A stretch of 64,000 nt of DNA from Candidatus Chisholmbacteria bacterium (lineage in GTDB: Bacteria > Patescibacteriota > Microgenomatia > UBA1400 > Chisholmbacteraceae): the NCBI GenBank assembly GCA_963704905.1, contig CAVPHZ010000001.1, forward strand, positions 323,438 to 387,437, written 5' to 3'. Made by a program: the position numbers and the translations under genes. Below, piece by piece: positions 31,220-56,627 of this stretch (positions are counted from its first letter, which is position 1; each line of letters begins with the position of its first letter). The notes beneath the pieces are model-generated. The model made no database searches. It was not told where the DNA came from and saw only the letters and a program-made list of their open reading frames with translations.

Positions 31220-33118
31220 TTAAAGGGGTTTTTGAGACTGTTGTTTTGGAACGGTGGCAGTTTGCATGGGTAGTTCTTCTTCCTGTTTCTTTTCAATTTC
31301 AAGAATTTCTTGGGGCTTAGTTGTAATGAGTTTGTGTTCTTCGCTTGAGGCAACAACCCTCATTGCTACGTGATTTTGACCAGCAAAAAAGAGTCCTTCG
31401 CCAATGTCAGCTGCCAAGAGAAGGTGTCTTTCTCCTTCAGAAAGGAAGAATGTTTCAGAGAGTTGTTCAATAGCTGCTGTTGATTGTTTGAAAAGAACTT
31501 GGATTGATGAGTTGGTTACTATTGCTTTTCCGTAGTCGGAATTGAGAAAATCTTCTACGTCTTGAGAAATGGTGGTCAGACCAAGATAATATTTTCTCGC
31601 CCGCTTGGCAATGGAGTAGAGAAATGTAGCAGAATCCTGGTTTTTCATTAAGTACCAAGCCTCATCAACAACAACCAACCTTCTTTTCATGTCTCTCTTC
31701 ACTTTTGTCCAGATATAATCAAGAATTATATACATAATTGTTGGTCTGGTTTCGTCTTCAACTTCTTTTAACGAGAACACTGTAAAAGAGTTTTTTAAGT
31801 CAACATTGCTTTGCTGGTCGAAGAAGCTTCGAAGTGATCCTTTTACAAACTTCTCAAGCCTATCTGCTAATCCTTTTGCAACTTGCTCTTCCATACCTAT
31901 AAGCGTTTTATAGAGATCTTCCATAAGCGGTGGTTCATTTCTTTGTGTAGAAGGATCTGGGGTGATACCCCTGGCTTTGTAGGTTGCAATCAGCGCCCGG
32001 TCAAGTATGGCTTCTTCTGAGGGGTTGACATCCCCAAGCATCACCTTTAACAACCCATGAAGAGAGAGAATTTTTAACCCCAGCTCATTTTCACCTTCTT
32101 CATAAACAGCAGATAAATCAAATGGGTTGAGTTTAGTTTGGGTGTTCAAGCTCAAGTTAATATAAGTGCCTCCTAGTGTTTCACACATCCTTTTGTATTC
32201 TTCTTCTGGATCGATGACAATTACCTCTGTTTCAAACATGAGAGACCGTAGTATTTCGAGTTTTTCAAAAAAACTTTTTCCAGATCCGCTTTTTCCAAAA
32301 ATTGCCATGTTTGCGTTTTCCATAGTGAAACGGTCAAAAATGATTAGTGAGTCGTTGTGTTCATTGATCCCATACATAATCCCTTCGTTGGCTGTTAATT
32401 CCGAAGAAGTGAAGGGAAAGGTTGTGGCGAGAGAGGTTGTATCCATGTTTCTGGTAACCACAAGCCGATCTTGGCCAAGAGGGAGTGTGGTTTTTAGACC
32501 TGCTTCCATCTGAAGAGTTGCTGCTTTTGAGATAATTAAGAGAGATCCAAGGGTGGATTGAACTTTTTTTGTCGTAGAATTTAATATTTCAAGAGAACTT
32601 GCACTTACTGTGATGTACAAACCAAACTGAAAGAAACGCTCTGCACCTTTAGCTAATTCTTGTTGGAGCCCTTTTGCATCTTCTAGTTTGATTTCTGTAT
32701 CTACGCTAGCGATATGACCGCGCTTGATGTCTGTTTCAATTTCAGCTTCCATTTCTCCAATTTTTCTTCGTAACTCGTCGAGAACTTCCCGACCTTCAAC
32801 GGGGTAGATAAACATAGAGATATCAAGAGAGTTTTCAAAGTTGATGAGGGGAGCCAGCCAGTTGGCGCTCACATACCTAGGATATCCAGCTACAAATAAC
32901 GTTCGGAGGAACATGTTTCCAACCTTGAGGTGATTGAAGTCAACGTCAATTGATTCCGGAGCAATGATGTCTTGAATTGAAACCATTCCGGATCCAAGTT
33001 GGTCTGCGGGATTTCCGGCATGTGCTTGTGGGGGGGTTGGATTTTGTAGAGTCTGTTCGCCGGCCTGCGTTTCCCTTTTTTTGTTTCTTTTTAGTGCATC
33101 TAAGATGTTTAAAGCCAT
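31220..33118 (-). CDS. VirB4/TrbE/CagE-family type IV secretion ATPase
   Basis: Walker A IFGKSGSGKSF, Walker B with the family-typical RLVVVDEAWYLM (DEAW), and a VirB4-like N-domain (LRTLFVAGYPRYV..WL). 632 aa. Confidence 0.6.
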   Translation of the reverse strand: MALNILDALKRNKKRETQAGEQTLQNPTPPQAHAGNPADQLGSGMVSIQDIIAPESIDVDFNHLKVGNMFLRTLFVAGYPRYVSANWLAPLINFENSLDISMFIYPVEGREVLDELRRKIGEMEAEIETDIKRGHIASVDTEIKLEDAKGLQQELAKGAERFFQFGLYITVSASSLEILNSTTKKVQSTLGSLLIISKAATLQMEAGLKTTLPLGQDRLVVTRNMDTTSLATTFPFTSSELTANEGIMYGINEHNDSLIIFDRFTMENANMAIFGKSGSGKSFFEKLEILRSLMFETEVIVIDPEEEYKRMCETLGGTYINLSLNTQTKLNPFDLSAVYEEGENELGLKILSLHGLLKVMLGDVNPSEEAILDRALIATYKARGITPDPSTQRNEPPLMEDLYKTLIGMEEQVAKGLADRLEKFVKGSLRSFFDQQSNVDLKNSFTVFSLKEVEDETRPTIMYIILDYIWTKVKRDMKRRLVVVDEAWYLMKNQDSATFLYSIAKRARKYYLGLTTISQDVEDFLNSDYGKAIVTNSSIQVLFKQSTAAIEQLSETFFLSEGERHLLLAADIGEGLFFAGQNHVAMRVVASSEEHKLITTKPQEILEIEKKQEEELPMQTATVPKQQSQKPL

Positions 33119-33132
33119 AATTGTTAACTCCC

Positions 33133-34107
33133 TTATTGCTCTTTAAGAGCGCTGTCTATTGTTGCTTGTATATTGTCTGTGGCTTTTGGTTGTTGAGCAG
33201 GATCTTGAGATACTATATGAGATTCACCTGATGTGGGTTGAGAAATAGCTGGCGTTTCATTGATAATTGATGACGTTTCAGGCTGGGGGGTAGGGAGTGG
33301 TGTGGGTTGGTTTGCGGGCGTAGATGTGCTTATTGGGTTTGGCGGAGGTGGTTGAGTTTTTGGTTGGCTCTCCTGGGGTAGTGGGGGTTGTTGTTGAGTG
33401 TTTATTTGAGGAACTTCTTGAAAGGCTACTGCAGGTTGAACGATAGGTGTTTCATATTCTTGGGGAGAAACTAATGTTTGACCTTGGGAGCTGTCTGGAT
33501 TGTATATTTCAAAAAGAAGCTGAATGAGCTCTTTAGTAGTGAGTTGTCTGGCTCGCAAACCAAGACGGGCAAGCTGATGTTCAACATGATCTCTTTTTGG
33601 TTCCAATGTCATTTTAGCTCGACCAATAATGTATTCTTTTGGGAAAGGAAGTCCGGTGTGACCGCCTTTTGCGATTGCTGTTGCCGACTTTGTAACTCCC
33701 AGCTCGAGAACAAAAAAAGGTATAACAATATAGAATTTTTTATCTAAAACATTTCTTTGACGGACTGTTTCCTCAATAAATTCCCTGTATTTTCTAATGC
33801 GTTCTTTGTTTTCTGGTTTTGCAGAGCGTAATTCCTGTTCCTCGAGCAACCTTTCATATCCAGTAATATCTTTTCTATTGCTTCTAATAAAAATCTGGAT
33901 AGGAAAGGTGAGTGAGTTAAGCAGAGCTGCGTAGGCATAAATTGTTGCGTCTTGCTCGGACTCAGATAAAAGACCAAAGTTCACCGCTGTGGTGGTGATT
34001 ATCATTGCAGCAGAACCATCTTTTAAAAGAATAAGATTCTCTGCAATTTCCTCGACATCGAGGTGTTGTTGAGTTGTAGATTTAATGACTTGTTTTGGGG
34101 CAGCCAT
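33133..34107 (-). CDS. hypothetical T4SS-associated protein with Pro/Gln-rich C-terminal tail
   Basis: 324 aa, immediately upstream of the VirB4-like gene. C-terminal 110 aa are low-complexity P/Q/T-rich. No motif recognised. Confidence 0.3.
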   Translation of the reverse strand: MAAPKQVIKSTTQQHLDVEEIAENLILLKDGSAAMIITTTAVNFGLLSESEQDATIYAYAALLNSLTFPIQIFIRSNRKDITGYERLLEEQELRSAKPENKERIRKYREFIEETVRQRNVLDKKFYIVIPFFVLELGVTKSATAIAKGGHTGLPFPKEYIIGRAKMTLEPKRDHVEHQLARLGLRARQLTTKELIQLLFEIYNPDSSQGQTLVSPQEYETPIVQPAVAFQEVPQINTQQQPPLPQESQPKTQPPPPNPISTSTPANQPTPLPTPQPETSSIINETPAISQPTSGESHIVSQDPAQQPKATDNIQATIDSALKEQ

Positions 34108-34119
34108 GCGTATTCTTTC

Positions 34120-35235: not shown

Positions 35236-35331
35236 GATTATTGGTTTTGTACTTTCAATCTGTTCTACTTGTTTATCAAGTTCATTTCATTATAACAAGG
35301 GAGGAAGGGGTGGGCTAGGGCTGGTGGATGG

Positions 35332-36372: not shown

Positions 36373-36384
36373 GTTGATTATAAA

Positions 36385-39729: not shown

Positions 39730-39816
39730 GCGTTGGGTTAATTTTGATCATCATAGCAAACTTCTTTGAGTGGTGGCTAGAGGTTGTCTGGTATACTAGC
39801 GGAAAGGAGCGGATAT

Positions 39817-40143
39817 ATGGACGAGCAAGGAACAGGTTACGTACCAGAATCAGCAGCTATCCCAGAATCGGAGCGGTGGAAATCATATGAGTTCATCGCC
39901 GAGAAGTTGGGTTTGTCGGCTGATCGGTTGCGAAGACTACTTAACACAAAGAAGGTTGATGGAAGGAAGATTCGAAAGACCCAACGCAATCCCGGGTTTC
40001 CGTTCCGATGGGTGACTACGGAGCGCAACGTGGCGAAATATCTTTCCAGCAAGCTGACGCCATCTGAATATGGGAAAAAAGGCGGTCGGCCGAGAAAGAC
40101 AGAGATCGGACGTCGGGGAGTGGTTTTTCAAGCAAGTTCGTAG
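39817..40143 (+). CDS. small basic protein with HTH-like segment (putative DNA-binding regulator)
   Basis: Start at the internal Met (MDEQGT), preceded by GGAAAGGAG. ERWKSYEFIAEKLGLSADRLRRLLNT resembles a helix-turn-helix. Very basic C-terminus. Divergent from the island operon. Confidence 0.3.
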   Translation: MDEQGTGYVPESAAIPESERWKSYEFIAEKLGLSADRLRRLLNTKKVDGRKIRKTQRNPGFPFRWVTTERNVAKYLSSKLTPSEYGKKGGRPRKTEIGRRGVVFQASS

Positions 40144-40225
40144 TATTTTCACGGTTGTAGTATCAAAAAAAGAAGTGTAACCTTGGTTGAAGAAAGTAAG
40201 TAATACTCTTGGGATTTATTAGTGG

Positions 40226-40254
40226 TTGACCCTTTCAGGAATTTATGGTAGAAT
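40226..40254 (+). promoter_or_regulatory. putative sigma70 promoter for the 1283-aa gene
   Basis: TTGACC (40226-40231), 17-bp spacer, TAGAAT (40249-40254). Confidence 0.4.
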
Positions 40255-40338: not shown

Positions 40339-43300
40339 ATGAGCGAAGAAAAAGAACGATCTGAAGAAAAAGGCAAAACAGAAAGAGGGAAGAAACCTTC
40401 TGGATCTCAAGAAAAGGAAAAGAAGGAAAGCTCTGTGCGCAGAAGAGGGAAACAGCAAAAAGAAACGAGCGCTCCACAGCCTCCATCAACGCAGCCAGAA
40501 CAAACAGTTTATGAGCGAGGCGACAAATTCCAGGGTGTAAATGAGAAAGACCGGAAGAATGCCGGTCAGCTTACCGAGAAGATGCTTCAGAGCGCAGTCG
40601 GCGAAGCTATGAAGGCAGGCGTTGAGGTTAACGGCAAGAAGATTCAGGCTGAAGATTTTGATCGGCTCAAAGCACTGCTTTTCAGAAAAAAAGAGGTGGA
40701 TGAAGAGGAAGAGAAATCACTGCTTGAATTGCTCCTGGCACTGCTTCAATTTCTTTATGAACAGATCAAACAAGCGATTTTTGGCGATAAAGACGACCAC
40801 AAGGCAATAGTTGAGACAGCGAAGGCGTTTGGAATCGGAGATGATTCCAAAGAAATCATGAAATGGGTTACCAGCATATTTACCTTTTCCGAGGAGGGTG
40901 AGGCAGAGCTACAGAAAAACGTTGACCGTTACCTTGCCGATGAGCAAGACGTTCCAGTTCCTGATGAACAGATGTTGGAAGCGTGGAGAAAGAGAGGGTG
41001 GACTGAAGGTGATATCCAGCGTGTCCTTAAAGAAGGAAAACGAGGAGGAACTTCAGGTCCAGCGGACGGTGAGGATATTGATGTAATGATTGATGCAATG
41101 AGTGATGATGAAGTAGCCCGTATTGCAGCCCGGGGAGATCGGACACTTGCCACTGCTGATATCTGGCAGCAGTATTTTGCCCAATCCAGACAAGGAGACC
41201 AAGCTGTAAGCTTAAATCCTTTGCAAGCGACGCTTGACGAACAAGTAAAACGACTCAAACAAGCCCAGGAGATTGGTGACCAAGCTCGGGAAAAACACCT
41301 ACAAAGAGAAGTTGCCAAGTCAATTCTTCTGCTGGAGCGGATGGCACCAGCCAGGAAAAGTAATAATGGAGAAGATGTTGAGCGACAAATGGGATTGTAT
41401 GGACCGCGGGCGGTTGATTTGATGAGGAGAATTACTGAACTTCGCAAAGTAGGTGTTTATGCTGCGCTGACTGCACGTGAGGCTGATATTCGTGCGATAC
41501 AGATTGAGGGAGATACGGGTGATTCATTAAAAGTTCAAACAGGACATGGAGAAGAAATATTTCAGTCTGGAGAGAGCGAGGTTGGTAAAAAATTGCTTCG
41601 AGATGTAGCTTTGGTGCAGGCCGGTAACCTGAGCGTAGATGAGTTTAGGGAGTCGTTACGAGTGAATTATATTAAACCTGTTTATGAGGAAGTTATTGGT
41701 GATGCCGAAGAGGATCCAAGGCAGGGATTCAAGATGGAGTCTTGGGGGCATATCCTAATGGGAGAGCTGTTTGAGTCGGTTAAAGAAGCTGGCTACTATG
41801 GTGATCGCGAGAAACAACGCCTGAGCAGCTCTTTGTATGCTCGGCAAATCAGCTCACTGCTTAATGCTGATGCAAATAAAGGTGCGAGCATCACCGATAT
41901 GCACAAGAAGGCTGACCAGCTGTTTTTATCTGAAGATTACGACACGATGATGCGTACAGAGCCGGGGTTGGGGGCAGCACGCAGGCGTCTTGAAGCAGTC
42001 TTCAGCCTAGTACAAATGGATCCCAACAACCGCTACCGAATGCCATATAAAGAATTTATTGCTGATCCAGAAGGAAACTTCGAGGCACCACACATACAAC
42101 GAATGGTATCGGAAACACTCTTGCAACAGCAAGGTGAAGGGATTTTGAGGAACTCGCTTGACCAGAAGGTTTCAATTAAACGGAAAGAGGCTGCGCGGAT
42201 TGCCGGACAGGCGATGAGCGTTTCCAACTCTATGCTGCGGACGACTGAACGGATGTCGACGAGCTTGCTTGCACCTCGAGAAGGTGGGGAGTTTTTAATC
42301 AGCACACCGCATGATAAAGCCAGATATGACACGCTGCGCATGTCCGGAGAACGGTTTGAGACGTATGGCCGTGGCCGGGAGGCAATCAAGCCATTGGTTG
42401 ACCGAATGCGACAAGCTGTTCAGCCAGGGGTGTATGAGCCATTACCCGGTAATGGCGGGTTTGGCGTTGACCGATGGGAGTTGAACCCGGAAAACTTGTT
42501 TAAAATCGGAGGGAATTATAGTGCCTCTCATTGGAGAGCACATAAGGCAACTGAACAACAGCGAGCACGTGGATTGGCTTTGGGATTGAAACTCTATGAG
42601 CCGGATGCAAACAAAGCTGATTTATGGAGACAGGTTGGGGAGCGACTGCCGACAGTGGTTGCGCGATATTTTCCCACATTAGCGCTTGAGAATGCGAAGG
42701 ATAAAATTCACTATTTTGATTTTGAAGCACGGCTCCGCAGCGATGTCATTTCAGGAGGGGAAAAGGAAAGTTTTTTGAGGTATGTACAAACCAGAAGAGA
42801 CGCGCTCTTGAAAGACAAAAAAGAAGATCATCTCGGTGAAATTTCTAGTGAAATAACAAAAGATATTGAATCCCGAATTCTGCGGGGTGTATCCAAGGAC
42901 ACAGCAAAGAATAAAGAGGATCTCAAAAAAGCAGTGGCTGGTTTTAGAGCCAGTGGAGAATATACGTTGGATGGCAAGCTTGGGCGGGTTTTTCAAGAAA
43001 AAGTGGAGCAACGCCAAAGAGAACTGTACCTTCAAGAAGGCGCGCGGATTAGTTTTCTATGGATGGTAGCTAAAGAAACAGGCACAGAGATGAATTTGAA
43101 TACACCTGAATGGGAGGGGAAAGCCTGGGAGCGATGGGTTGAGATTGAGAACAAATTGGCGATTTTGCAGGAAAAGAAACTACAAGAATTTTTATTTGAG
43201 CGGAAAGAAGAGTACCAGGATGCAGATGGAATAGCGCAAAGTGCCTACGATGCAGGGCATGATGCTAGTTGGAGGATTTTAGACGATCCTACTTTAACTG

Positions 43301-44190
43301 AGGGAGTGAAAAACGTTGTCCGTCGGCTGACTTTCCTTGGAAATAATGACATTTCTGAGCGTGATTACACCACTTTTCACCAACAAGTATTAGGTTTATC
43401 CGATGAAGAGATTAATACAGAATTGGATTTGCACGATGATTATCAGGTTTCAAGTAGCAACAGGGAGGCAAAACGAAACGCTGTTCTTTGGAAAAGACTT
43501 GATAAAGAGAAGAAAAGAGGAGCGGAGCGGCTGGCGAGCGTGGAGTTTAGCTTTACGCCGTTTTTAGATGATGTTGCGCACGAGAAAGAGGAGTGGAAGG
43601 AGATCGGACCGAGGGGTGTATCTCGAAGATATGCTGACAATGAGATGTACCAAAACGCCCAATCGGCGTTCTGGAAGATTTCTAATAACCTGATGGTTGG
43701 TGACGACCGGGCCCCGCAAGACCGAGCTGAATTGGTGAAAAATTTGACTGAGTTTCAAAACATCATGCAGTATCTTTCTGAGTCTGATCGGCAGAAGATA
43801 ACCGCTTCGCTTGCGTACAATGTGGTTAATAATCTTTATAAGGCAGATAAATGGACGAACATTCCCTTTTTTGGCCCAGTGATCGACTGGGGAGGACCTT
43901 GGGGATTGTGGAAGTTTGCTGGAGTGTCTTCTCCTGCACAGCGGAAGTTTGGATACGATGCAATGAGCATGACTGCTTTAGAACGCTACCAATTCATAAA
44001 TGATTTACGCCCACTGATAGGTAATGAGTGGGCAGATAAGCTGATGAAAGATACTAAATCACGGTTTCGAAATGTGGTTTACGAGTTAGTTAACCAATAT
44101 TCGCTTCCAGGTGCAATAGCATCAGCTTGGTACCTGGCGAAACCATTTTTTACGGAATTAGCGGCGTATATGAAGCAGGATTTTCAGTAG
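40339..44190 (+). CDS. very large, highly charged soluble protein of unknown function
   Basis: 1283 aa, Lys/Glu/Arg-rich, with a low-complexity N-terminus (EEKERSEEKGKTERGKK). No TM, no nucleotide-binding or relaxase HUH motif seen. Confidence 0.35.
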   Translation: MSEEKERSEEKGKTERGKKPSGSQEKEKKESSVRRRGKQQKETSAPQPPSTQPEQTVYERGDKFQGVNEKDRKNAGQLTEKMLQSAVGEAMKAGVEVNGKKIQAEDFDRLKALLFRKKEVDEEEEKSLLELLLALLQFLYEQIKQAIFGDKDDHKAIVETAKAFGIGDDSKEIMKWVTSIFTFSEEGEAELQKNVDRYLADEQDVPVPDEQMLEAWRKRGWTEGDIQRVLKEGKRGGTSGPADGEDIDVMIDAMSDDEVARIAARGDRTLATADIWQQYFAQSRQGDQAVSLNPLQATLDEQVKRLKQAQEIGDQAREKHLQREVAKSILLLERMAPARKSNNGEDVERQMGLYGPRAVDLMRRITELRKVGVYAALTAREADIRAIQIEGDTGDSLKVQTGHGEEIFQSGESEVGKKLLRDVALVQAGNLSVDEFRESLRVNYIKPVYEEVIGDAEEDPRQGFKMESWGHILMGELFESVKEAGYYGDREKQRLSSSLYARQISSLLNADANKGASITDMHKKADQLFLSEDYDTMMRTEPGLGAARRRLEAVFSLVQMDPNNRYRMPYKEFIADPEGNFEAPHIQRMVSETLLQQQGEGILRNSLDQKVSIKRKEAARIAGQAMSVSNSMLRTTERMSTSLLAPREGGEFLISTPHDKARYDTLRMSGERFETYGRGREAIKPLVDRMRQAVQPGVYEPLPGNGGFGVDRWELNPENLFKIGGNYSASHWRAHKATEQQRARGLALGLKLYEPDANKADLWRQVGERLPTVVARYFPTLALENAKDKIHYFDFEARLRSDVISGGEKESFLRYVQTRRDALLKDKKEDHLGEISSEITKDIESRILRGVSKDTAKNKEDLKKAVAGFRASGEYTLDGKLGRVFQEKVEQRQRELYLQEGARISFLWMVAKETGTEMNLNTPEWEGKAWERWVEIENKLAILQEKKLQEFLFERKEEYQDADGIAQSAYDAGHDASWRILDDPTLTEGVKNVVRRLTFLGNNDISERDYTTFHQQVLGLSDEEINTELDLHDDYQVSSSNREAKRNAVLWKRLDKEKKRGAERLASVEFSFTPFLDDVAHEKEEWKEIGPRGVSRRYADNEMYQNAQSAFWKISNNLMVGDDRAPQDRAELVKNLTEFQNIMQYLSESDRQKITASLAYNVVNNLYKADKWTNIPFFGPVIDWGGPWGLWKFAGVSSPAQRKFGYDAMSMTALERYQFINDLRPLIGNEWADKLMKDTKSRFRNVVYELVNQYSLPGAIASAWYLAKPFFTELAAYMKQDFQ

Positions 44191-44201
44191 TACTTCTTTT
44201 C

Positions 44202-45695
44202 TTATTTTCTTCGAGTTTCACCGGCGAGTGATTCAATCTTCTGGGCAACGTAGGTTCTGGCTCCGGAGGAGATTCCACCCGCCACACCTCGTACCGGGGC
44301 TGTGGCTACCCTAGCTCCAGCGGCAATTGGAGCAAAGATGCCGGCGGCCGGTATTCCTTTGGCTTTCAGCGCTTGCTGGAGCGTGGTTACCAGCTGGGGG
44401 GTAAAGAGGATGAAACCATATCCTATTAAAGCGAGGACAGATTCGACGTCTGTGGTAAAGCCGATGAAAGGCGGAAGCCAACCTTCACCACTATCTCTAA
44501 TGACTGAACTGGTTATTCCCCACTCATCTCTTCCTAAAGAACAACGGTCTGGATCACTTGAAGTACATGGACCCATGAGAATAGCTCCAATGAGGAGGAG
44601 GGCTGCAGCGGCAGGAAAGACAAGAACATTGGCGAGGAAATTTCGAGCCCAACTGCTGAAGCTGTCTGATCCAGGCAGAGCATTGGGAAGGATCATCAAC
44701 GGAGAGAAGATGGTCAGCATGATGATTTTTACATAGGACATGAGCAACTGGAAAAAGAGACGGAAGGCGGCAAACAGAAGTGCAACCGACATGATGACGG
44801 TGACAAATGCGTCTCCGACGATTCCGACGATAAAGCCAATGGTGTCGTTGTCAAACACGTTCTCAATGATATTTCTGATTTGATCTCCTGCGGTGTCCCC
44901 GGAAACCGTGTCAAAGCCTTTAAAGAGAATGGTAAAGATGTTTTCACCGATGAATACCTGGCGCGGTGCGGAGGCACTCGTTAGGAGCCCTTGAGTGTAT
45001 AGTGTTGAGATGACGAGATAGATGCCGAGGTAGATGAGGTCGACGAAAAAGCCTGCTATCGCAAAGGAAAAAGTGATGAGCAGCAAAGTGACCACAAGTT
45101 TTGGGAGCGAGTTTTGAAGGTTGACCACGGTTTGAGGGTCAAGCTGAGCGCGAAACATGATCATAAATCCAATGAAGATAAAGATGATCACGTAGGCAAG
45201 ATAGGCGATGTTTCTAAACGCAGCCCAGAGATCTGTCAAAGGAAGGAGGGCACGATAGCCGGTGCTCTGCGCATAGGCAGGTTCAACCGGGTTTATTTTG
45301 CGAGCGACGTATTGAATATATTGTCCTGAAGAAACAGGCCGTTCGGCGATAAGTCCGGCGATGAAGCCTCCGGCGAATTGTACTGCACCTGGCCGTCTAT
45401 AGCTGAATGGAGTCGGGTCTGCTGTGGGATGCTCAGTGGTTCTGAATGTCGAGGTACTGGTGGTGTTTAAGATTGCATTTACGATAGCAGTAACTGTGCA
45501 CTCAAGACCCACGTTTCCGTCAGCACATTCTTGCAGCGCCAAGTCGTGTTCGGCTGAGCTGGGCTGAAACCATAGGCTTTGGGCAAATATTGGTATGGAA
45601 AAGAGGGTGAATAACACGATGAGAACAGCAACGATTTTCCAGAGTGGTTTGTTGAGAACATTTCTGAGCCAGCGCAGGTGTTTCATCAGCGTCAT
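44202..45695 (-). CDS. polytopic membrane protein (VirB6/TrbL-like candidate)
   Basis: 497 aa with an N-terminal signal/TM and at least six further hydrophobic helices, in a T4SS-like context. Confidence 0.35.
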   Translation of the reverse strand: MTLMKHLRWLRNVLNKPLWKIVAVLIVLFTLFSIPIFAQSLWFQPSSAEHDLALQECADGNVGLECTVTAIVNAILNTTSTSTFRTTEHPTADPTPFSYRRPGAVQFAGGFIAGLIAERPVSSGQYIQYVARKINPVEPAYAQSTGYRALLPLTDLWAAFRNIAYLAYVIIFIFIGFMIMFRAQLDPQTVVNLQNSLPKLVVTLLLITFSFAIAGFFVDLIYLGIYLVISTLYTQGLLTSASAPRQVFIGENIFTILFKGFDTVSGDTAGDQIRNIIENVFDNDTIGFIVGIVGDAFVTVIMSVALLFAAFRLFFQLLMSYVKIIMLTIFSPLMILPNALPGSDSFSSWARNFLANVLVFPAAAALLLIGAILMGPCTSSDPDRCSLGRDEWGITSSVIRDSGEGWLPPFIGFTTDVESVLALIGYGFILFTPQLVTTLQQALKAKGIPAAGIFAPIAAGARVATAPVRGVAGGISSGARTYVAQKIESLAGETRRK

Positions 45696-45746
45696 TGTAG
45701 ATCACAGCATTCGTATGAGTCAAATGTTGAGACTCTGTTTATTGTA

Positions 45747-46877
45747 CTACAGACCCTTTCTGACCCAAATCTGTTGGTTGCAGCGCTCATCATAATATAT
45801 ATACGGTTGAGATCCCGGGATGCGGGAAGAAATAGACTCCAATAGATTTTCTTTAGCACAGTGAATATAGCCAAGATAGCGGAAGTAGGTACGCGCATCA
45901 CTACCGGGATTGATATCAAGCGGAGAGCCGGCTTCTGCGTAGTCGTCGGTGAAGCGGTAACTCAGGCGTGACTCACCAGGCCAGTCAAAGGTTGGTTCGC
46001 TGAGGGCAGTGCGGAACATGGTGAAGATCGACTGAGTGTTATTTACGGTGTTGTTCCAAATCTCGTATAAGTACGGGGTGTATGTGTGAATGTACCCCGG
46101 GGTCATGGCAACTTTGATTTCTTCGTATAAGTCCTCACAAGCTCCTTGTTCGAAATCAAATGGGCTGGGGAACCAATTTCCATTGTATGGATCATTCGGT
46201 TGACCGCCTGATTGGCTAGAGTCCCAAACACATTCCATCCAAGGAGCGAAGGGGTCGCTGCGGCAAGATCCTGTTGAGCTCGATCCTCCCGGAACCCATG
46301 ACCCACCTATGCATTGGTGCCATCCATATCTGTATGGCTGGTTGCAAAATCTGGTGACTGTTGGTTCGGTTAAGTACCAATCATCGTCACAATATTGTCC
46401 TCCCTGACAACCAAAACCGCCAGTACAACAGTCTGAAAGACTGCAAGGTGAGGCAAAGTCAGGACATTGCTGAATCCGATTAACTTGCGTTCCAGGAGGA
46501 TGACCTGCTGGGACACCAACAACTGGAGCAGTGCAATACCAAGCAGGGCCAGTCAGATCGTTGGTTGGCATGCTTGCCGAATTACATTCGGCTCCCGGGC
46601 AAATATACTCGAAGTAATCTGCATAGTAGGGTTGGGGAATGTATTTGAGTTCGGCAGCCTGGAAATTGATTTCGCTGTTGAAGACATAATCACCAGGAGA
46701 ATAGTATTGATCTCCGAGATCGCACATCGGGCCAATTGAACAGGCGTTGTAGTAACAATCGAAACCTTGGGCAAAGATCGGTTTTTCCATTTTTGACAGC
46801 AGGAATAGTCCAATGATTGAGAAGAGAATGAGTGTAAGTGTGGCGTGAATTAATAGTTGCAGTCTTATACTGTTCAT
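45747..46877 (-). CDS. secreted Cys/aromatic-rich protein, hypothetical
   Basis: 376 aa. N-terminal signal/TM (LTLILFSIIGLFLLS), then over 30 Cys with many W/Y/G/P (CYYNACSIGPMCDLGDQYY...). Confidence 0.4.
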   Translation of the reverse strand: MNSIRLQLLIHATLTLILFSIIGLFLLSKMEKPIFAQGFDCYYNACSIGPMCDLGDQYYSPGDYVFNSEINFQAAELKYIPQPYYADYFEYICPGAECNSASMPTNDLTGPAWYCTAPVVGVPAGHPPGTQVNRIQQCPDFASPCSLSDCCTGGFGCQGGQYCDDDWYLTEPTVTRFCNQPYRYGWHQCIGGSWVPGGSSSTGSCRSDPFAPWMECVWDSSQSGGQPNDPYNGNWFPSPFDFEQGACEDLYEEIKVAMTPGYIHTYTPYLYEIWNNTVNNTQSIFTMFRTALSEPTFDWPGESRLSYRFTDDYAEAGSPLDINPGSDARTYFRYLGYIHCAKENLLESISSRIPGSQPYIYYDERCNQQIWVRKGL

Positions 46878-46880
46878 TTG

Positions 46881-48719
46881 TTAGCCTTCTGGTCTGTCAA
46901 TTAAAGCACAGGTAGAAACCCACCTCCATCGAGATTGAATGTTGCAAGCATATTGTCTTCCAGTTGACGAGTCGCAGCTTCCACTGCGATAGATAGCCAG
47001 GAATACTTCCAGGTCGTTCATCGGTCGGGCTGGTCCAGTTCCGCAGCTGGCAGTGGATAAGTTTGGATAGAGTGTCGTGAGCGGAGGATTACTGAAACAG
47101 CTTGAATAATTGGAGCGGTATACAGATGGCAATTGGATGTGACCGCTCAACCCGGTTCCACCGCCATTATTTTGACGCTCGAAACTACACTCCAGAGCTG
47201 GGTTGTTTACTCCGAAATCTTGCCGTGAGATGCTGTAGTTGCTGGCGTTGCTTTCATTTAGCCAGATGAGCATGGACAGGGCTGGGTGAATATTGCCGCT
47301 AGCATGGGCAATGACATCTCCATAGCATGCGGCAACATTGTTTCCTGGTCGGCCACTTACCCATGCTAGGGCAAGATTTTCAATATCTGATTGTGATCGA
47401 ACACAAGAATGTGTATTGGAGACGTTGTGGCAATCAACCACTGTTGTAGGATCGCATCCGGCTGAACCGCCACCGGCTAGACAGGCTGCTCCTGACATAG
47501 CCCAAGGACCAGCAGGACACATTTCACCCATATCTGCTTCGGTTTCTTCTTCAGGAGGTACAGGCACGGGGAGCAGGTTTGATGCAAGCATGTCTTGCAA
47601 GTAAGTGCTGACCTGGTTTAGGCGGGGAAGGTGAGGAATGCTTACCCTTTCTTCAATAGTTGAGAAGGGCTGTCCCGGCTCTGGATTGACTTGAATGAAG
47701 CCAATGGCATCTTCCCGGGTGACTGTGGGAATATTTGACCAGAGTTTGCCGTAAATTGTATCAGCCCACTGAGTGCGGTCTGCAATGTAGGTGGCAATAC
47801 AACTATTTCTGGCAACTGAACTGGCGATAGCACTACAGGTGTATTCTGGTGGAAGGTGGCTGGAAAAGTCTGATAGCCGAACTGGATTTCCTTGGTTCCA
47901 GTTTGCTGGTTCTCCATTATCTTCAAAACCAACGATATAGTCGTGATGTTCATCTCCAGCGTTATCTATCATGCTGATCTTTCTACCTCTTTGCGTTGAC
48001 AGATCTTCGTTAAATGGCAAGGCTGAAAGTAGCTTCCGATAAACACCGGCACGATTCCAAAGTTCGGGACGCTGATCAATATACACCAGACTATTGATGT
48101 CCGGTTCAAGCACTCCTTCGTAGAAGGCCCGGCCTTCAAGGTAATCGGCTAGATGTTCCTGAGCCCGGTTAAAGAAGGTGAGGTAGTCGTATCCAGCACG
48201 ATTGACGGATACCAGCGGAAGCTCGTAGGCGCGAGCATCCACGGTGTAGGTGCCTGCAATGCAAGGAAGATTATTTGGATTTGCGTCTATGCCGCAGGGG
48301 TTGTCTTGCGGCTGGACAGCGGCAACACAAGGAAAGTTCGGATCATTAAGCTCACATCCTTGTGTATGGCGAAGATAACCAACATTTTTGGCTGCCCAGG
48401 GACGCATGGCACAGTAGGGTTCGTTGGTGTCTTCTATTTCTCGGTCTGCTTCGGGACCACAAATCTCGCAGGGATACGGACGAAGCGGATGGCCTTCGCT
48501 ATCCCACGGGTCGCAGCGCTCAGCTTCTAACCCTGCAGTTCTCGGGCAGGAATCGACATCCGCTTGGGCAAGAGTTTGAGAGGGGGATGTGACTGTTGAT
48601 ATTACAACTACAATCAGTACTACTATCAACTGAAGTGATGTTTTTCTTTTATCTTGTTGTTGGTCAAAACGTTGCGTCATATTGACTAGGAAGAAGCCAA
48701 GATACCTCATAATTATCAT
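46881..48719 (-). CDS. secreted Cys-rich protein, hypothetical
   Basis: 612 aa. N-terminal TM/signal, about 30 Cys, 4-bp spacing from the downstream paralog-like gene. Confidence 0.4.
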   Translation of the reverse strand: MIIMRYLGFFLVNMTQRFDQQQDKRKTSLQLIVVLIVVVISTVTSPSQTLAQADVDSCPRTAGLEAERCDPWDSEGHPLRPYPCEICGPEADREIEDTNEPYCAMRPWAAKNVGYLRHTQGCELNDPNFPCVAAVQPQDNPCGIDANPNNLPCIAGTYTVDARAYELPLVSVNRAGYDYLTFFNRAQEHLADYLEGRAFYEGVLEPDINSLVYIDQRPELWNRAGVYRKLLSALPFNEDLSTQRGRKISMIDNAGDEHHDYIVGFEDNGEPANWNQGNPVRLSDFSSHLPPEYTCSAIASSVARNSCIATYIADRTQWADTIYGKLWSNIPTVTREDAIGFIQVNPEPGQPFSTIEERVSIPHLPRLNQVSTYLQDMLASNLLPVPVPPEEETEADMGEMCPAGPWAMSGAACLAGGGSAGCDPTTVVDCHNVSNTHSCVRSQSDIENLALAWVSGRPGNNVAACYGDVIAHASGNIHPALSMLIWLNESNASNYSISRQDFGVNNPALECSFERQNNGGGTGLSGHIQLPSVYRSNYSSCFSNPPLTTLYPNLSTASCGTGPARPMNDLEVFLAIYRSGSCDSSTGRQYACNIQSRWRWVSTCALIDRPEG

Positions 48720-48819
48720 AGAAAGTTCACTTCCTTATTGCAAGAATAGAGAATTATGATTTTGAGAGAAAGCTTTTTTGGAAGCTGAGGGTTGGGAGAT
48801 TGGGGATATTAAATAAAGA

Positions 48820-49290
48820 CTACAACCCTGTTGTGTCTGGGCAAGGTATATTGAACTCCAGTAGCGTGAAGGTGACACCGAAGATGAAATCGTCAATAAA
48901 TTTGAGAATAAACCAGGCAAGTATCATTAGTGCAATTCCTGCGATTGCATAGGTCATGGTATTTTTGGCGTCTTGTACCGCTTTTTGATCACCACCACTG
49001 GTAAGATAGCGGAAGCCTCCAAATATTAACATTACAAAGAGAAGTATTCCGGCAATTGAGACCGCGGCTGACAGGATATTGGCAAAAATATAGTTAAAAT
49101 CACATAGGGGATTTACTGCCGAAGGTTGAACTATTCCAGCGTAGATAGTCCTAGGTTTTAGTATGCCCAATACAGCCGTGAAGAGCGCAACTACCCACGT
49201 TCGCTTCAAGTTCATTATCAGATGATTAAAAACAATCGGAACGTTCTTGGTGAGGCTCCGATTGTTTTTTCTTTTTTCCATTATGATCAT
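48820..49290 (-). CDS. T4SS pilin-like two-helix membrane protein (paralog 1 of 7)
   Basis: Signal/TM1, loop LFVMLIFGGFRYLTSGGDQKAVQDAKNTMTYAIAGIAL, then TM2. Shares the W/Y-[LI]-[TS]-[AS]-G-[GN]-[DP]...K...A..G[LI] motif with the neighbouring ORFs. Confidence 0.5.
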   Translation of the reverse strand: MIIMEKRKNNRSLTKNVPIVFNHLIMNLKRTWVVALFTAVLGILKPRTIYAGIVQPSAVNPLCDFNYIFANILSAAVSIAGILLFVMLIFGGFRYLTSGGDQKAVQDAKNTMTYAIAGIALMILAWFILKFIDDFIFGVTFTLLEFNIPCPDTTGL

Positions 49291-49335
49291 TGCTCTGATT
49301 CACAACTTAAATTCTATCTTGTGTGTACTATCTGA

Positions 49336-49683
49336 TTAATAGAATGTTGGGAGTGAAAGGGTGCTCGTGAAATTGACTCCAAAGAAGAAGTTGATCAGTT
49401 GCATGATGGCCCAGGCTGCTGCGATGACAGCAAGTCCGACCAATGCGTTTGAAATTCTTCCGCGAGCTGCTTCAATGTTGGCCTTATCACCTCCGGCAGT
49501 AATCCATTGGATTCCACCCCAAACCAGATATGCAAAGACAAGAACTCCTGCAATGAGGAAGGCTGCTCCAATGGCCCCAGAAATGAGCGTTCCAATATCA
49601 GTAATCTGGAATCCTGATGGTCTGCCAACGTTGACGCTAGCGTATGCTTGTGGTGCGAGTTGCATATCTTCACCTCCTCTCAA
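49336..49683 (-). CDS. T4SS pilin-like protein (paralog 2)
   Basis: LVWGGIQWITAGGDKANIEAARGRISNALVGLAVIAAAWAIM. Confidence 0.5.
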   Translation of the reverse strand: MRGGEDMQLAPQAYASVNVGRPSGFQITDIGTLISGAIGAAFLIAGVLVFAYLVWGGIQWITAGGDKANIEAARGRISNALVGLAVIAAAWAIMQLINFFFGVNFTSTLSLPTFY

Positions 49684-49817
49684 TGCAGTGATGATTATGG
49701 TTTTATGTACTTTCCTTGTTTATTTTGATCAATATTCGACGAACTGTCAACTTCAGTATTTGAAAATTTCTAGTCTTTGCTGAAAACTTGCTCCATTTTT
49801 TAACCTTTATATTCTAT

Positions 49818-50132
49818 CTATATTGGGTTGATTGGAAGCCCAAGAACATAGATGGCGATAAGATAGACTGCCCATGCAGCTGCAACTAAGACTAGCCCAG
49901 TTGCTGCGTTGGTCATCCGTTGTTTGGCTGCTTCTACGTGGGTTTTGTCACCTCCAGCTGTTAACCATTGGAGTGCTGACATGACGAAGAAGAGGATGAA
50001 CGCGAGACCACCGAAGATGAGTGCGAGTGCCAATACATTACTTACCACATCACCAATCGATGTGATTTTAAAGAATGTTCCAATGTCTAGTTGAGAACTG
50101 ACGTTTACAGGTATTGGTGTAAAAAGTGTCAT
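49818..50132 (-). CDS. T4SS pilin-like protein (paralog 3)
   Basis: ALQWLTAGGDKTHVEAAKQRMTNAATGLVLVAAAWAVY. Confidence 0.5.
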   Translation of the reverse strand: MTLFTPIPVNVSSQLDIGTFFKITSIGDVVSNVLALALIFGGLAFILFFVMSALQWLTAGGDKTHVEAAKQRMTNAATGLVLVAAAWAVYLIAIYVLGLPINPI

Positions 50133-50146
50133 AGGTATCTATTGAA

Positions 50147-50533
50147 TTACGGTCCAGGAAAGTCAAACGACAAATCTTCTAGGAATTGGATATTTAAGAC
50201 AGAACCGAGAAACTGAATAATAGCCACAGAGGCCACGAGTATGACGAGACCGATAGCCCCGTTGGCAATTTTGTCTCTACCTTCTTCAAATTTGGATTTG
50301 TCACCCTGAGCAGTTACCCAACGAACCGCTCCCCATGCGAAGTATAAAACAAAGAAGATACTTCCAACAATGACGAGGGTTTTCCAGATGTTAGCGATCA
50401 TCATTGCTAACGCTTCACCGGGTGCTCCGGTGCTGTATGTGGGAGCAACGGGGTTAGAGATTCTTGCATAGCTAGGAGTTGAGCTAAGCAGTGTTAGGAG
50501 GGAGCTGGTAATTATTTTCAGCTTTTTTTTCAT
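50147..50533 (-). CDS. T4SS pilin-like protein (paralog 4)
   Basis: AVRWVTAQGDKSKFEEGRDKIANGAIGLVILVASVAII. N-terminal signal peptide. Confidence 0.5.
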   Translation of the reverse strand: MKKKLKIITSSLLTLLSSTPSYARISNPVAPTYSTGAPGEALAMMIANIWKTLVIVGSIFFVLYFAWGAVRWVTAQGDKSKFEEGRDKIANGAIGLVILVASVAIIQFLGSVLNIQFLEDLSFDFPGP

Positions 50534-50544
50534 GACATCAGGTA

Positions 50545-50904
50545 TTAAGGTGTTAGTTCACCAATTCTGGCTGCTAAATCTAGAATATCAAATCCGAGCA
50601 GTAAACCAAGTATTCCGGTAATTGCCCAAGTCATGACAATGATCACCAAACCAATAGCTGCATTCGATAAATACCTCTGGGCTTTTTTTACTTTTTCTTG
50701 GTCACCTTGGGCGGTGAGATAATTCAGCGCTCCAAGCAGAAAATAGATGATGAATGCCAAACCTCCTATTACCGTGAATGTTCCCAAGAGAACGCTGAAG
50801 AAATTTTCAAGAGTGCCCCCAACATCAGTTGCAGTTACTTGGAAGGGGCTGTCTCCTGTGATTGGCTGGAAGTCTAGTGCATAGATTGGCTTGATGTTAG
50901 TCAT
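50545..50904 (-). CDS. T4SS pilin-like protein (paralog 5)
   Basis: ALNYLTAQGDQEKVKKAQRYLSNAAIGLVIIVMTWAI. Confidence 0.5.
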   Translation of the reverse strand: MTNIKPIYALDFQPITGDSPFQVTATDVGGTLENFFSVLLGTFTVIGGLAFIIYFLLGALNYLTAQGDQEKVKKAQRYLSNAAIGLVIIVMTWAITGILGLLLGFDILDLAARIGELTP

Positions 50905-50905
50905 A

Positions 50906-51346
50906 TTATGGACCAGGCCCAGTTATAGACGGTTGTAAAATGGCGGTCGCGTCTCCAAAAAGTAAAAGTCCCATCAGCGCTGCAAAGGCAAAAGCCAAAA
51001 CGACTACTATCAACCCGATGATCGATTGATAGATTTTTTGCCAGGCACTGGAGATTTTTTCCGGATTACCGGCAGAGCTGATAAATGAAACCCCACCGAG
51101 TACAAAGTTGATAAAGGCGTACAGTCCAGCAGCTATAGTAATCAGGCGAATAACATTTGAGAGAAACACTGTGGCGTAAGGGAGATCTCCATAGGCTGTG
51201 ATGGGATTGGTAATTGTTCCAATCAATCCAGCATGCGCAATTTTTACCTGAAATATAGCGTTATACACTAGAGCGAGAAGAACAATTGAAATAGTTCTCA
51301 AACTACTTACTTTTGGCAAAAGATGATGATTATTGTTCATGACCAT
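50906..51346 (-). CDS. T4SS pilin-like protein (paralog 6, divergent)
   Basis: GVSFISSAGNPEKISSAWQKIYQSIIGLIVVVLAFAFA (GNPE variant of the loop). Confidence 0.45.
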   Translation of the reverse strand: MVMNNNHHLLPKVSSLRTISIVLLALVYNAIFQVKIAHAGLIGTITNPITAYGDLPYATVFLSNVIRLITIAAGLYAFINFVLGGVSFISSAGNPEKISSAWQKIYQSIIGLIVVVLAFAFAALMGLLLFGDATAILQPSITGPGP

Positions 51347-51364
51347 GTTTGCTGTTTCTTAATT

Positions 51365-51802
51365 TTAGAGTCCGGAGGTCAGGATAGCAATACCGGTTAG
51401 CACTTCGATAATTCGGATGATCCAAAATGCTCCAAAGACAAGTCCAAGCCCCATGACACCTGCGGTCGCTGCATTTTTGCCTTTCTCGTTTTGCTGCGGG
51501 TTTCCTGCTGAAGAGATCATGGCAATCCCAGCTCCGATGATGAGTAGAAATGAAATTAACCCAGCGCCTACCATGGCCGTAGTGAGTAAGGGAGAGATAT
51601 AGTCTCCAAGTGTTCTGGTCCCACCGAATGCAAGTGGATAGGCAGTTGCAATATCAACAGGAGGAGGTTGCGCATAAACGGCTGAGGTAATTCGGAAGAA
51701 TATGCCTGTTGAGAGGATTGTGATGATTGCTATTTGGCGATTGAGGGTGGGCTTCATGCTTGAGAATAGCATACCATTATTGTGATTATCATAGCCGGTC
51801 AT
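51365..51802 (-). CDS. T4SS pilin-like protein (paralog 7, divergent)
   Basis: GIAMISSAGNPQQNEKGKNAATAGVMGLGLVFGAFWII. Confidence 0.45.
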   Translation of the reverse strand: MTGYDNHNNGMLFSSMKPTLNRQIAIITILSTGIFFRITSAVYAQPPPVDIATAYPLAFGGTRTLGDYISPLLTTAMVGAGLISFLLIIGAGIAMISSAGNPQQNEKGKNAATAGVMGLGLVFGAFWIIRIIEVLTGIAILTSGL

Positions 51803-55437: not shown

Positions 55438-55443
55438 TCAATT

Positions 55444-56622: not shown

Positions 56623-56627
56623 CTGTT

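Follow-up and report, generated by a model that had tools for sequence, protein, structure and literature searches.

A probable core type IV secretion locus of the Patescibacteria type beside dnaN in a Microgenomates-group genome

Introduction

This paper deals with a cluster of mostly minus-strand genes resembling a type IV secretion system (T4SS), which occupies about 20 kb of a 64,000-nucleotide stretch of DNA from a Candidatus Chisholmbacteria assembly (contig CAVPHZ010000001.1), the whole stretch being referred to below as the window. The cluster is very probably a chromosomal Patescibacteria-type T4SS locus of the Microgenomates group, of MPF-FATA (mating-pair formation, FATA type) descent, i.e., a core locus beside the origin of replication (oriC) that is no longer a mobile element; its identity as a Patescibacteria T4SS locus, taken by itself, can be stated with high confidence.

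Systems of this kind, characteristic of the ultra-small Patescibacteria, are already in the literature. A survey of 3,035 Patescibacteria genomes by Quinonero-Coronel et al. (2025; PMC12102498) reports VirB4 in 2,417 of them and places the Patescibacteria VirB4 clade within MPF-FATA. According to the same survey, TrsD is the commonest neighbor of virB4, near which PrgI/VirB3, VirB6, and VirB1-like proteins containing M23 or LysM domains also occur, and VirB2 genes form arrays of 2-11 members of about 25% identity, especially in Microgenomatia and Saccharimonadia, a diversification compatible with adaptation to different host surfaces. The genes dnaA, dnaN, and rnpA are given there as the most frequent neighbors in Paceibacteria and Microgenomatia. 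Linkage of VirB3 to virB4 is described as rare (22.6%) and VirB6 as infrequent in this class. Relaxases were found in only 103 of the 3,035 genomes, and VirD4-like homologues, i.e., type IV coupling proteins (T4CPs), in most of the genomes, usually far from virB4.

Functional information comes from other organisms. By transposon sequencing (Tn-seq), Wang et al. (2023; PMC10633639) reported that the T4SS (SEML1_0006-0019) and the pilins of S. epibionticum are essential in co-culture; neither a coupling protein nor a relaxase was recognized in this system, and protein export was suggested as possible. A 2025 FEMS review (PMC12857230) records that competence of S. epibionticum needs ComEC and type IV pili, and that deletion of comEC ends competence and leaves viability intact, from which it follows that the essential role of the T4SS, still essential without comEC, is not transformation. 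The same review notes that type IV pili already give adhesion in Saccharibacteria, and that VirB2-like pilin arrays are absent from Gram-positive systems. Finally, a 2026 preprint (10.64898/2026.06.21.733656) describes tube-like structures, perhaps T4SS pili, at the contact between parasite and host, together with an uptake of host RNA whose mechanism its authors call unresolved. The T4SS found in the Candidate Phyla Radiation (CPR) is the only one on which its bearer is reported to depend for growth, and what it transports, and in which direction, are questions still open in the field (PMC12857230; 2026 preprint).

The original prediction for this DNA, made from the sequence alone, had entertained a previously undescribed surface or secretion machine. 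This idea has to be given up, as the system is described in PMC10633639, PMC12102498, and PMC12857230, and the system itself, its missing relaxase, its pilin arrays, and its proximity to dnaA/dnaN are all published (Wang 2023; Quinonero-Coronel 2025). The locus is thus categorically nothing new, and its interest lies in being a clean example on a complete-looking contig from a still-uncultivated class, with modest additions in the parts that are less well described, namely a 346-aa protein family, a slot occupied by Cys-rich proteins, a convergent large protein with its small helix-turn-helix (HTH) gene, and four pilins at 61-63 kb.

The gene cluster and its motor

Read in their own direction, the minus-strand genes begin with seven T4SS_pilin genes, followed by those for a 612-aa and a 376-aa Cys-rich protein and a 497-aa polytopic protein; a plus-strand pair (39784-40143 and 40339-44190) then breaks up the string, which resumes with a 1114-aa M23 protein, the 346-aa protein, the 371-aa PrgI, and a 324-aa protein, and closes with the 632-aa ATPase, whose gene converges on dnaN with 34 bp separating the two. 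The original prediction had listed a VirB4-family ATPase with a DEAW Walker B motif, a VirB3-like protein with two transmembrane (TM) segments, a giant polytopic protein with a C-terminal M23-like hydrolase, a second polytopic protein, two large Cys-rich secreted proteins, and a tandem array of seven two-helix pilin-like genes. All the listed genes are present where it had placed them, as judged from the open reading frame (ORF) listing and the family scans, and each of these descriptions agrees with the matches and architectures reported in Table 1 and in the sections that follow.

Table 1. Positions in the window of the genes of the cluster and of the neighboring genes mentioned in the text
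Feature	Positions	Strand	Basis or remark
Whole T4SS-like gene cluster	31220-51802	mostly -	ORF listing and family scans
VirB4 ATPase, 632 aa	31220-33118	-	Pfam, NCBIfam, and PDB matches; Walker motifs
TrsD-like protein, 324 aa, Pro/Gln-rich tail	33133-34107	-	sub-threshold profile matches
PrgI (VirB3-like), 371 aa	34120-35235	-	PF12666, 1.9e-7, 31.9 bits vs cut-off 27
Bitopic membrane protein, 346 aa	35332-36372	-	one N-terminal TM segment, ~310-aa ectodomain
Polytopic M23 protein, 1114 aa	36385-39729	-	PF01551 Peptidase_M23
Small conserved gene, ~108-119 aa	39784-40143	+	not in the list of the original prediction
Large soluble charged protein, 1283 aa	40339-44190	+	0 Cys, no TM segment, DE 17%, KR 15%
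Polytopic membrane protein, 497 aa, ~7 TM segments	44202-45695	-	weak TrbL_4, TrbC, and MMCAP2_0566 matches
Cys-rich secreted or anchored protein, 376 aa, 19 Cys	45747-46877	-	N-terminal hydrophobic segment
Cys-rich secreted or anchored protein, 612 aa, 23 Cys	46881-48719	-	N-terminal hydrophobic segment
VirB2-like pilin 1, 156 aa	48820-49290	-	PF18895 T4SS_pilin, 2.5e-12; NF045849 Mbov_0395 pilin-like, 4.6e-5 (below cut-off)
VirB2-like pilin 2, 115 aa	49336-49683	-	PF18895, 3e-10
VirB2-like pilin 3, 104 aa	49818-50132	-	PF18895, 2.6e-9
VirB2-like pilin 4, 128 aa	50147-50533	-	PF18895, 1.6e-7
VirB2-like pilin 5, 119 aa	50545-50904	-	PF18895, 2e-9
VirB2-like pilin 6, 146 aa	50906-51346	-	PF18895, 5.1e-7
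VirB2-like pilin 7, 145 aa	51365-51802	-	PF18895, 7.1e-6, 26.4 bits vs cut-off 26.6; aligns with the other pilins
Second array, four pilin paralogues	61073-63079	-	outside 31220-51802
Second-array pilin	61073-61435	-	PF18895, 1.2e-9
Second-array pilin, 264 aa	61445-62239	-	PF18895, 1.8e-5
Second-array pilin	62422-62808	-	PF18895, 6.2e-8
Second-array pilin	62777-63079	-	PF18895, 1.4e-5
Cys-rich ORF, 109 aa	63171-63500	-	
dnaN	30034-31185	+	DNA_pol3_beta domains; context, not component
dnaA	28422-29795	+	origin block
rnpA	27662-28012	-	origin block
yidC	26615-27367	-	origin block
jag/KhpB-type gene	26139-26618	-	origin block
ECF-type sigma factor	51834-52397	+	Sigma70_r2, r4_2
Small ORF after the sigma factor	52336-52635	+	C-terminal hydrophobic segment
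Mevalonate-pathway operon	53120-61066	+	between both pilin arrays
Surface-polysaccharide block	19885-26142	-	directly upstream of the origin genes
RNase H/RVT_3-like gene of this block	23062-23550		
VanW + PG_binding_4 protein, 620 aa	12571-14433	+	TTG start
Solute-binding protein gene	10845-12629	divergent from the VanW gene	

The 632-aa ATPase passes the curated cut-off of the NCBIfam family NF045971, named "VirB4-like conjugal transfer ATPase, CD1110 family" (410.2 bits vs 325), whose prototype, CTn2, is of the MPF-FATA class. Next in rank come the Mycoplasma VirB4 family, which belongs to an integrative and conjugative element (ICE), and the Thermoanaerobacter VirB4 structure (PDB 4AG5, 8.4e-48); Pfam P-loop_TraG is matched at 1.9e-29, and the protein has a Walker A motif, GKSGSGKS, at residue 275 and a Walker B motif, VVVDEAW, at 481-488, with DEAW at 485. 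VirB4_CagE stays far under its cut-off (125 bits vs 643). The match to HerA DUF87 is marginal (2e-9) and the Pfam scan returned no FtsK family, so that the ATPase is a VirB4, as had been proposed, and not a member of the FtsK or HerA families.

The alignment with NF045971 spans profile positions 184-734 of 752, the protein being devoid of the usual N-terminal ~180 residues of the family. The gene lying 14 bp upstream of virB4 encodes the TrsD-like protein, whose matches are all below the curated cut-offs: NF045975 (Mbov_0397) at positions 102-281 with 2e-8, NF041427 TrsD with 1.8e-5, the CD1110 profile at positions 2-119 with 8e-4, and Pfam TraC_F_IV with 0.0017; its search against the PDB was empty. 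These matches are colinear, and since they fall on the N-terminal parts of profiles that VirB4 covers only from position 184 on, the 324-aa protein would seem to be the N-terminal domain of VirB4 split off as a protein of its own.

The third member of this core, PrgI, passes its Pfam cut-off and consists of an N-terminal PrgI domain with two TM helices, a charged linker, and a C-terminal domain resembling a β-sandwich, the latter with a match to CarboxypepD_reg (1e-6) that is below the cut-off of that family. The PrgI proteins of this class are mostly 330-390 aa long (range 284-394, with one of 679), i.e., about three times the canonical length.

Conservation beside dnaN and the question of an island

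At least 8000 relatives of the VirB4 protein were found at E ≤ 1e-10; the 120 that were listed are 66-86% identical to it, most of them ~67-73%. At the species level the best matches are to Candidatus Chisholmbacteria (82-85%), followed by Curtiss-, Beckwith-, Shapiro-, Woese-, Collier-, and Woykebacteria and by other Patescibacteria, and among the matches listed, most records of the closest relatives, at 61-86% identity, bear the names Chisholmbacteria, Shapirobacteria, Woesebacteria, Curtissbacteria, Beckwithbacteria, or "Patescibacteria group". These relatives are consistent with membership in the Patescibacteria clade, and they agree with the original guess of a system of CPR episymbionts, the closest ones being Candidatus Chisholmbacteria and other metagenome-assembled genomes (MAGs) of the Microgenomates group.

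The synteny that had been proposed as a check at the dnaN locus was followed in 80 species-level loci, one genome per species, which were fetched with 10-kb flanks and searched with the window proteins as probes; they are designated by the letter L and a number where they have to be told apart. In 73 of the 80 loci the gene immediately upstream of virB4, and on its strand, is the TrsD-like one, and 71 have PrgI-TrsD-VirB4 in an unbroken row. Fourteen loci, whose contigs stop less than 6 kb downstream of virB4, are uninformative for dnaN; in 62 of the remaining 66 (62/80 overall) dnaN is at most 6 kb from virB4. It is convergent and less than 500 bp away, as in the window, in 21 loci; in another 22 it is also convergent, with other genes filling the 0.5-6 kb between the two, and in 19 loci dnaA-dnaN comes after virB4 in the same direction. 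The intervening genes are those for the M23 protein and its 346-aa partner in the loci inspected (e.g., L011 and L015). Only four loci have no dnaN despite a full 10 kb downstream.

The degree of conservation was compared between the window and the three closest species (L001-L003). VirB4 is 82-85% identical, compared to 67-68% for DnaA and 58-61% for DnaN; PrgI reaches 58-59%, the M23 protein 32-35%, and the 1283-aa protein 26-32%. By sequence identity, then, the motor is hyper-conserved and the envelope and surface parts are fast-evolving. The 80-species comparison as a whole suggests that the PrgI-TrsD-VirB4 core is under stronger constraint than DnaA, that the surface and wall-associated parts evolve very fast, and that three or four slots of unknown function are conserved in position.

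In the original prediction the cluster was an island inserted directly after dnaN, in an unusual position. The position is in fact the published norm for Microgenomatia and Paceibacteria, as PMC12102498 has it, and the T4SS genes of S. epibionticum are likewise SEML1_0006-0019 (PMC10633639). An inserted island would amount to an ordinary ICE, or the remnant of one, the mobility genes of which are either too divergent or outside the window; the best VirB4 families are indeed conjugative (CD1110, Mycoplasma ICE), several genes of the cluster are unrecognizable orphans, and the GC content reaches 0.46-0.48 in the 36-49 kb part. However, GC content is uneven over the whole window and reaches the same level in the mevalonate operon and groEL, giving the cluster no specific mark, and the arrangement in which PrgI-TrsD-VirB4 abuts dnaN-dnaA recurs in 62 of the 80 loci, all from different species, with a VirB4 that is better conserved than DnaA and DnaN. 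Moreover, a scan of about 60 ORFs of at least 100 aa across the 64 kb gave no family match for a relaxase, a T4CP/FtsK-like protein, an integrase, or a recombinase, in line with the earlier statement that a VirD4-type ATPase, a relaxase, and a recombinase are missing, which holds for the locus and for these ORFs. The window scans found neither tRNA genes nor convincing att-like flanking direct repeats; the orphan large proteins are without Walker A or HxH motifs, and relaxases are rare in the surveyed genomes at large (103/3,035; PMC12102498). Already largely refuted by the synteny, an ICE is very improbable. The conserved synteny beside dnaN and a VirB4 better conserved than DnaA argue instead that the locus is, as far as these comparisons of sequence go, a vertically inherited core locus.

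A side observation concerns the records themselves: many of those among L004-L080 are titled "uncultured Gammaproteobacteria", "Pseudomonadales", "TM6", "Bathyarchaeia", or "Nanoarchaeia" despite a locus of the Patescibacteria type. They look like mislabeled MAGs, and their titles are unfit for taxonomy.

Wall and membrane components

In the 1114-aa protein a hydrophilic N-terminal half with basic repeats is followed by Gly-rich TM segments (510-800) and, C-terminally, by an M23 domain that contains Cys, with at least four hydrophobic segments in all. Peptidase_M23 is matched at residues 997-1079 above its cut-off (1.1e-7, 32.4 bits vs 28.7). Homologues occur in 15-21 of the 80 loci, and the M23 domain was confirmed in L016 and L051. 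This is a probable cell-wall-remodeling component, in the role of VirB1.

The members of the 346-aa family adjoin this polytopic protein in the loci inspected, and the pair is found upstream of PrgI in some loci and in others between virB4 and dnaN. Jackhmmer gathers 25 such proteins, of 315-399 aa, among the 80 loci, which puts the family in at least 25 of them; in the alignment the protein of the window is ~20% identical to its counterparts, i.e., the family is fast-evolving. The original prediction spoke of a bitopic protein with the topology of VirB8, and on this point it stands in part: the single N-terminal TM segment is there, and no similarity of sequence or profile was obtained, as the family profile matched nothing in Pfam or the PDB and hhalign gave a probability of 0.1% against TcpC of pCW3. 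Word-indexed searches with the single sequence and with a 26-sequence profile returned only the protein itself and one other, and an AlphaFold2 (AF2) model computed with one homologue had a pLDDT of 38 and was unusable. The protein is a candidate for the VirB8 position.

The 497-aa protein, with its ~7 TM segments, is the second polytopic protein of the cluster. Its family matches are below the cut-offs, as for TrbL_4 (7.4e-4, 19.4 bits vs 27), TrbC (2.9e-3), and the conjugal transfer protein MMCAP2_0566 of the Mycoplasma ICE (NF045848; 2e-6, 27.3 bits vs 90). Homologues are present in 26 of the 80 loci, a count limited by the 10-kb flanks, and TrbL_4 was matched in one of 22 members of the family in the Pfam scan; hhalign against TcpH of pCW3 gave a probability of 1.5%, and the PDB search was empty. 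On these matches and on its topology, the protein is a probable channel subunit of the VirB6/TrbL type.

Pilins and Cys-rich surface proteins

In the first array, PF18895 is matched above its cut-off by six of the seven pilins. The array does not exhaust the pilins of the window, since beyond the range considered originally there are four more, which have in common with the first array a two-helix core and the loop L-T/S-S/A-x-G-D/N. The pilins are 18-32% identical to pilin 1, and the two arrays (7 + 4) are split by the mevalonate operon.

Between the pilins and the VirB6-like gene are the two Cys-rich proteins. The C-terminal ~110 aa of the 376-aa protein form a conserved domain (jackhmmer), which also ends Cys-rich proteins of 331-1047 aa in L004, L009, L010, L011, and L015, where they are likewise positioned between the pilin array and the VirB6-like gene. 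Residues 80-395 of the 612-aa protein match residues 360-616 of L011_920_4063 in BLASTP (2e-14), and more weakly the proteins of L009, L015, and L010. The two proteins together correspond to a single larger Cys-rich protein (582-1047 aa, 12-35 Cys) in other lineages, and the 612-aa protein is a candidate adhesin or pilus-associated protein.

Eleven diversified pilins and Cys-rich surface proteins, in a locus with no coupling protein, might be taken for an organelle of adhesion only, in which VirB2-like pili and Cys-rich adhesins serve attachment and no substrate is transferred; the pilin diversification would fit adaptation to varied host surfaces (PMC12102498). Nevertheless, type IV pili are already adhesive in Saccharibacteria (PMC12857230), and the retention of a VirB6-like channel and of an extremely conserved VirB4 suggests transport, which leaves adhesion alone an improbable function.

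Three further observations were made around the arrays. The 264-aa pilin carries a Cys-rich N-terminal extension of ~190 aa, and its neighbor is a Cys-rich 109-aa ORF without the pilin domain. A sigma factor of the extracytoplasmic function (ECF) type is encoded divergently from the first pilin gene, 31 bp separating the two annotated starts; judged by this adjacency, it possibly regulates the pilin array. The small ORF after it could be an anti-sigma factor.

A convergent large soluble protein and its small neighbor

The gene for the 1283-aa protein converges on the VirB6-like gene, the stop codons being 11 bp apart. That the protein might be polytopic or secreted was ruled out, as it is soluble, Cys-free, and highly charged. 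It is a lineage-restricted orphan with 13 relatives in 1.84 billion representatives, and neither the single sequence nor the profile matched Pfam, NCBIfam, or the PDB, its six homologues being equally without a Pfam match. An AF2 model of the C-terminal 324 aa, computed from eight sequences, is all-helical with a pLDDT of 59, and the best E-value of a Foldseek search of the PDB with it was 0.3, which is meaningless. The large soluble proteins of the locus have neither Walker A nor HxH motifs.

The slot itself recurs. Of the 25 loci that have a VirB6-like gene, 20 show as its immediate neighbor a convergent gene for a soluble, nearly Cys-free, highly charged protein of 590-1357 aa, the ends of the two genes being 1-75 bp apart (with a 3-bp overlap in one); in four of the other five, a similar large soluble gene lies one ORF further. 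BLAST clustering and hhalign detected no homology between the lineage groups of these proteins, except for one link, through a C-terminal domain of ~150 aa, between the Curtissbacteria-type group (L013, L018, L020, L024, L027, L036, L037, L039) and the proteins of L045, L047, and L062 (hhalign E 1.6e-4; jackhmmer recovers all 11). The 1283-aa family did not join any other group. By eye, many proteins of the slot end in an amphipathic tail.

Just upstream of the 1283-aa gene is a small gene, for which the start is probably Met12 at 39817. In the window and in L001-L003 it always precedes the 1283-aa homologue, with 43-49% identity between the window and the ORFs at the same position in the three other loci (L001 3289-3591, L002 2893-3243, L003 2504-2806). 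The protein carries EYGKRGGRPRK near its C-terminus, within which the motif EYGK(K/R)GGRPR is invariant in these four loci, and it matches HTH_17, MerR, and HTH_36, all sub-threshold; it is a putative HTH DNA-binding protein.

The recurrence of the slot invites the idea that the system exports protein effectors and that the large convergent protein, here the one of 1283 aa, is injected into the host. Such proteins fill this slot in 20 of 25 loci and diverge beyond recognition between lineages, a pattern known from host-interaction proteins, the amphipathic C-terminal tail is found on many of the slot proteins, and protein export by the T4SS has been suggested by Wang et al. (PMC10633639). On the other hand, the position of a gene does not by itself show that its product is secreted: no signal or domain indicative of secretion was seen, the locus lacks a T4CP, which usually acts as the receptor of effectors, and homology between the lineage groups is unproven apart from the Curtissbacteria-type link (curt-g45). 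Export of this kind is therefore an explanation that we regard as unlikely.

More broadly, we offer as a tentative proposal that Microgenomates-group T4SS loci hold conserved components outside the current catalogues. The main candidate would be the large convergent protein, either as a cytoplasmic substrate receptor or as the main cargo, with the 346-aa protein as a VirB8-like and the Cys-rich proteins as VirB5-like (tip or adhesin) components.

Comparison with known systems and proposed function

With the Patescibacteria-clade T4SS the locus shares an MPF-FATA-type VirB4, an adjacent TrsD-like gene, a PrgI/VirB3, a VirB6-like protein, an M23 wall hydrolase, a divergent array of VirB2-like pilins, the lack of a relaxase and T4CP in the locus, and the vicinity of dnaA/dnaN/rnpA. 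It departs from the published account as a Microgenomates-group instance in which the pilins are in two separate arrays. In contrast to what the survey reports (PMC12102498), PrgI is adjacent in 71 of the 80 loci studied here and 26 have a member of a weak VirB6-like family; its accessible part does not discuss the pairing of the 346-aa family with the M23 protein, the Cys-rich slot, or the convergent large soluble protein.

The Gram-positive MPF-FATA systems (C. difficile CTn2/CD1110, pCF10 Prg, pGO1 Trs, pCW3 Tcp, and the Mycoplasma ICE) have in common with the locus the VirB4 family, the PrgI-type VirB3, a TrsD-like protein, a large wall hydrolase, and the lack of an outer-membrane core (no matches to VirB7/9/10 here), and the matches to TrsD, MMCAP2_0566, and Mbov_0395, although below cut-off, tie further genes to components of monoderm ICEs. 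Unlike these systems, the locus is chromosomal and vertically inherited, has no relaxase, T4CP, origin-of-transfer (oriT) context, or integrase in the window, possesses VirB2-like pilin arrays, and shows no detectable similarity to TcpC or TcpH of pCW3. The two-helix VirB2/TrbC-like pilins, with their tandem amplification and strong divergence, recall the Agrobacterium VirB/Bartonella-type T4SS, from which the locus differs in its monoderm architecture, in having no VirB5, VirB7-11, or VirD4, and in a VirB4_CagE score far below cut-off. The archaeal Ced system and ComB of H. pylori, finally, resemble it in relying on a VirB4-family ATPase without a relaxase and offer a possible functional analogy for import, but CedB and CedD are matched far too weakly to pass their cut-offs and no CedA or ComB components were recognized.

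From the families matched, the following mechanism can be proposed. VirB4, with the TrsD-like protein as its N-terminal domain and anchored to the membrane by the PrgI/VirB3-like protein, would power assembly and transport through a VirB6-like membrane channel formed by the 497-aa protein. The 1114-aa M23 protein would open the cell wall, probably jointly with its constant partner, the 346-aa bitopic protein, and the eleven divergent VirB2-like pilins would polymerize into an extracellular tube or fiber, which the Cys-rich secreted proteins may decorate or tip, unless they serve as adhesins. The literature on other classes suggests as the function contact with host cells and a non-conjugative exchange of macromolecules needed by the epibiont. 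More speculatively, the 1283-aa protein might be a cytoplasmic partner or a substrate, and its small HTH neighbor a regulator.

A narrower version of such an exchange would be a machine for nucleic-acid import, comparable to Ced or ComB, in which the pilus and VirB4 draw in DNA or RNA of the host as a source of nucleotides. To our knowledge, CPR bacteria lack nucleotide synthesis, which would give such a machine a use. The VirB4 protein has weak matches to CedB and CedD (51 and 30 bits), relaxase and local T4CP are absent from the ORFs scanned, and the 2026 preprint (10.64898/2026.06.21.733656) reports host RNA uptake together with tubular structures at the interface. Yet neither Ced score comes near its curated cut-off (700 and 600), the locus has no nucleic-acid-specific feature, and the preprint itself leaves the mechanism of RNA uptake unresolved; in S. 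epibionticum, competence proceeds via ComEC and type IV pili, and the T4SS is essential even without comEC (PMC12857230). We consider specialized import doubtful, and the general reading of the system as a conduit for host interaction and not for conjugation likely, by analogy with the systems described in the Introduction.

Several points weigh against this reading and the identification on which it builds. The function is extrapolated from Saccharimonadia and one 2026 preprint, and not from organisms of the Microgenomates group. The negative result for mobility genes pertains to the 64-kb window, and a distant T4CP or relaxase may be encoded elsewhere on the 772,908-bp contig. Among the components, the VirB6 assignment rests on sub-threshold matches and membrane topology, no VirB8-like fold has been demonstrated for the 346-aa protein, and the link of the 1283-aa protein to the T4SS is positional only, its analogues in other lineages being without detectable homology.

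Neighboring genes

The cluster is flanked by housekeeping genes, with rnpA, yidC, jag, dnaA, and dnaN on one side and the sigma factor and the mevalonate pathway on the other. A scan of the window against Rfam gave no matches, and a scan for promoters and terminators gave no excess over shuffled sequences.

The mevalonate-pathway operon is apparently complete, in a CPR genome. It comprises genes for hydroxymethylglutaryl-CoA (HMG-CoA) reductase, a protein resembling HMG-CoA synthase or thiolase, a thiolase, an OB-fold protein of the ChsH2_C type, a NUDIX protein, two GHMP kinases, and diphosphomevalonate decarboxylase, followed by undecaprenyl-diphosphate synthase. On the other side of the cluster, the block of surface-polysaccharide genes encodes a 957-aa DUF4012 protein, the RNase H/RVT_3-like protein, a Polysacc_synt flippase, and a Wzy_C protein resembling O-antigen ligases. 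Further away, the TTG start of the gene for the 620-aa VanW and PG_binding_4 protein overlaps the end of the divergent gene for a solute-binding protein, and the start codon of the VanW gene is probably misassigned.

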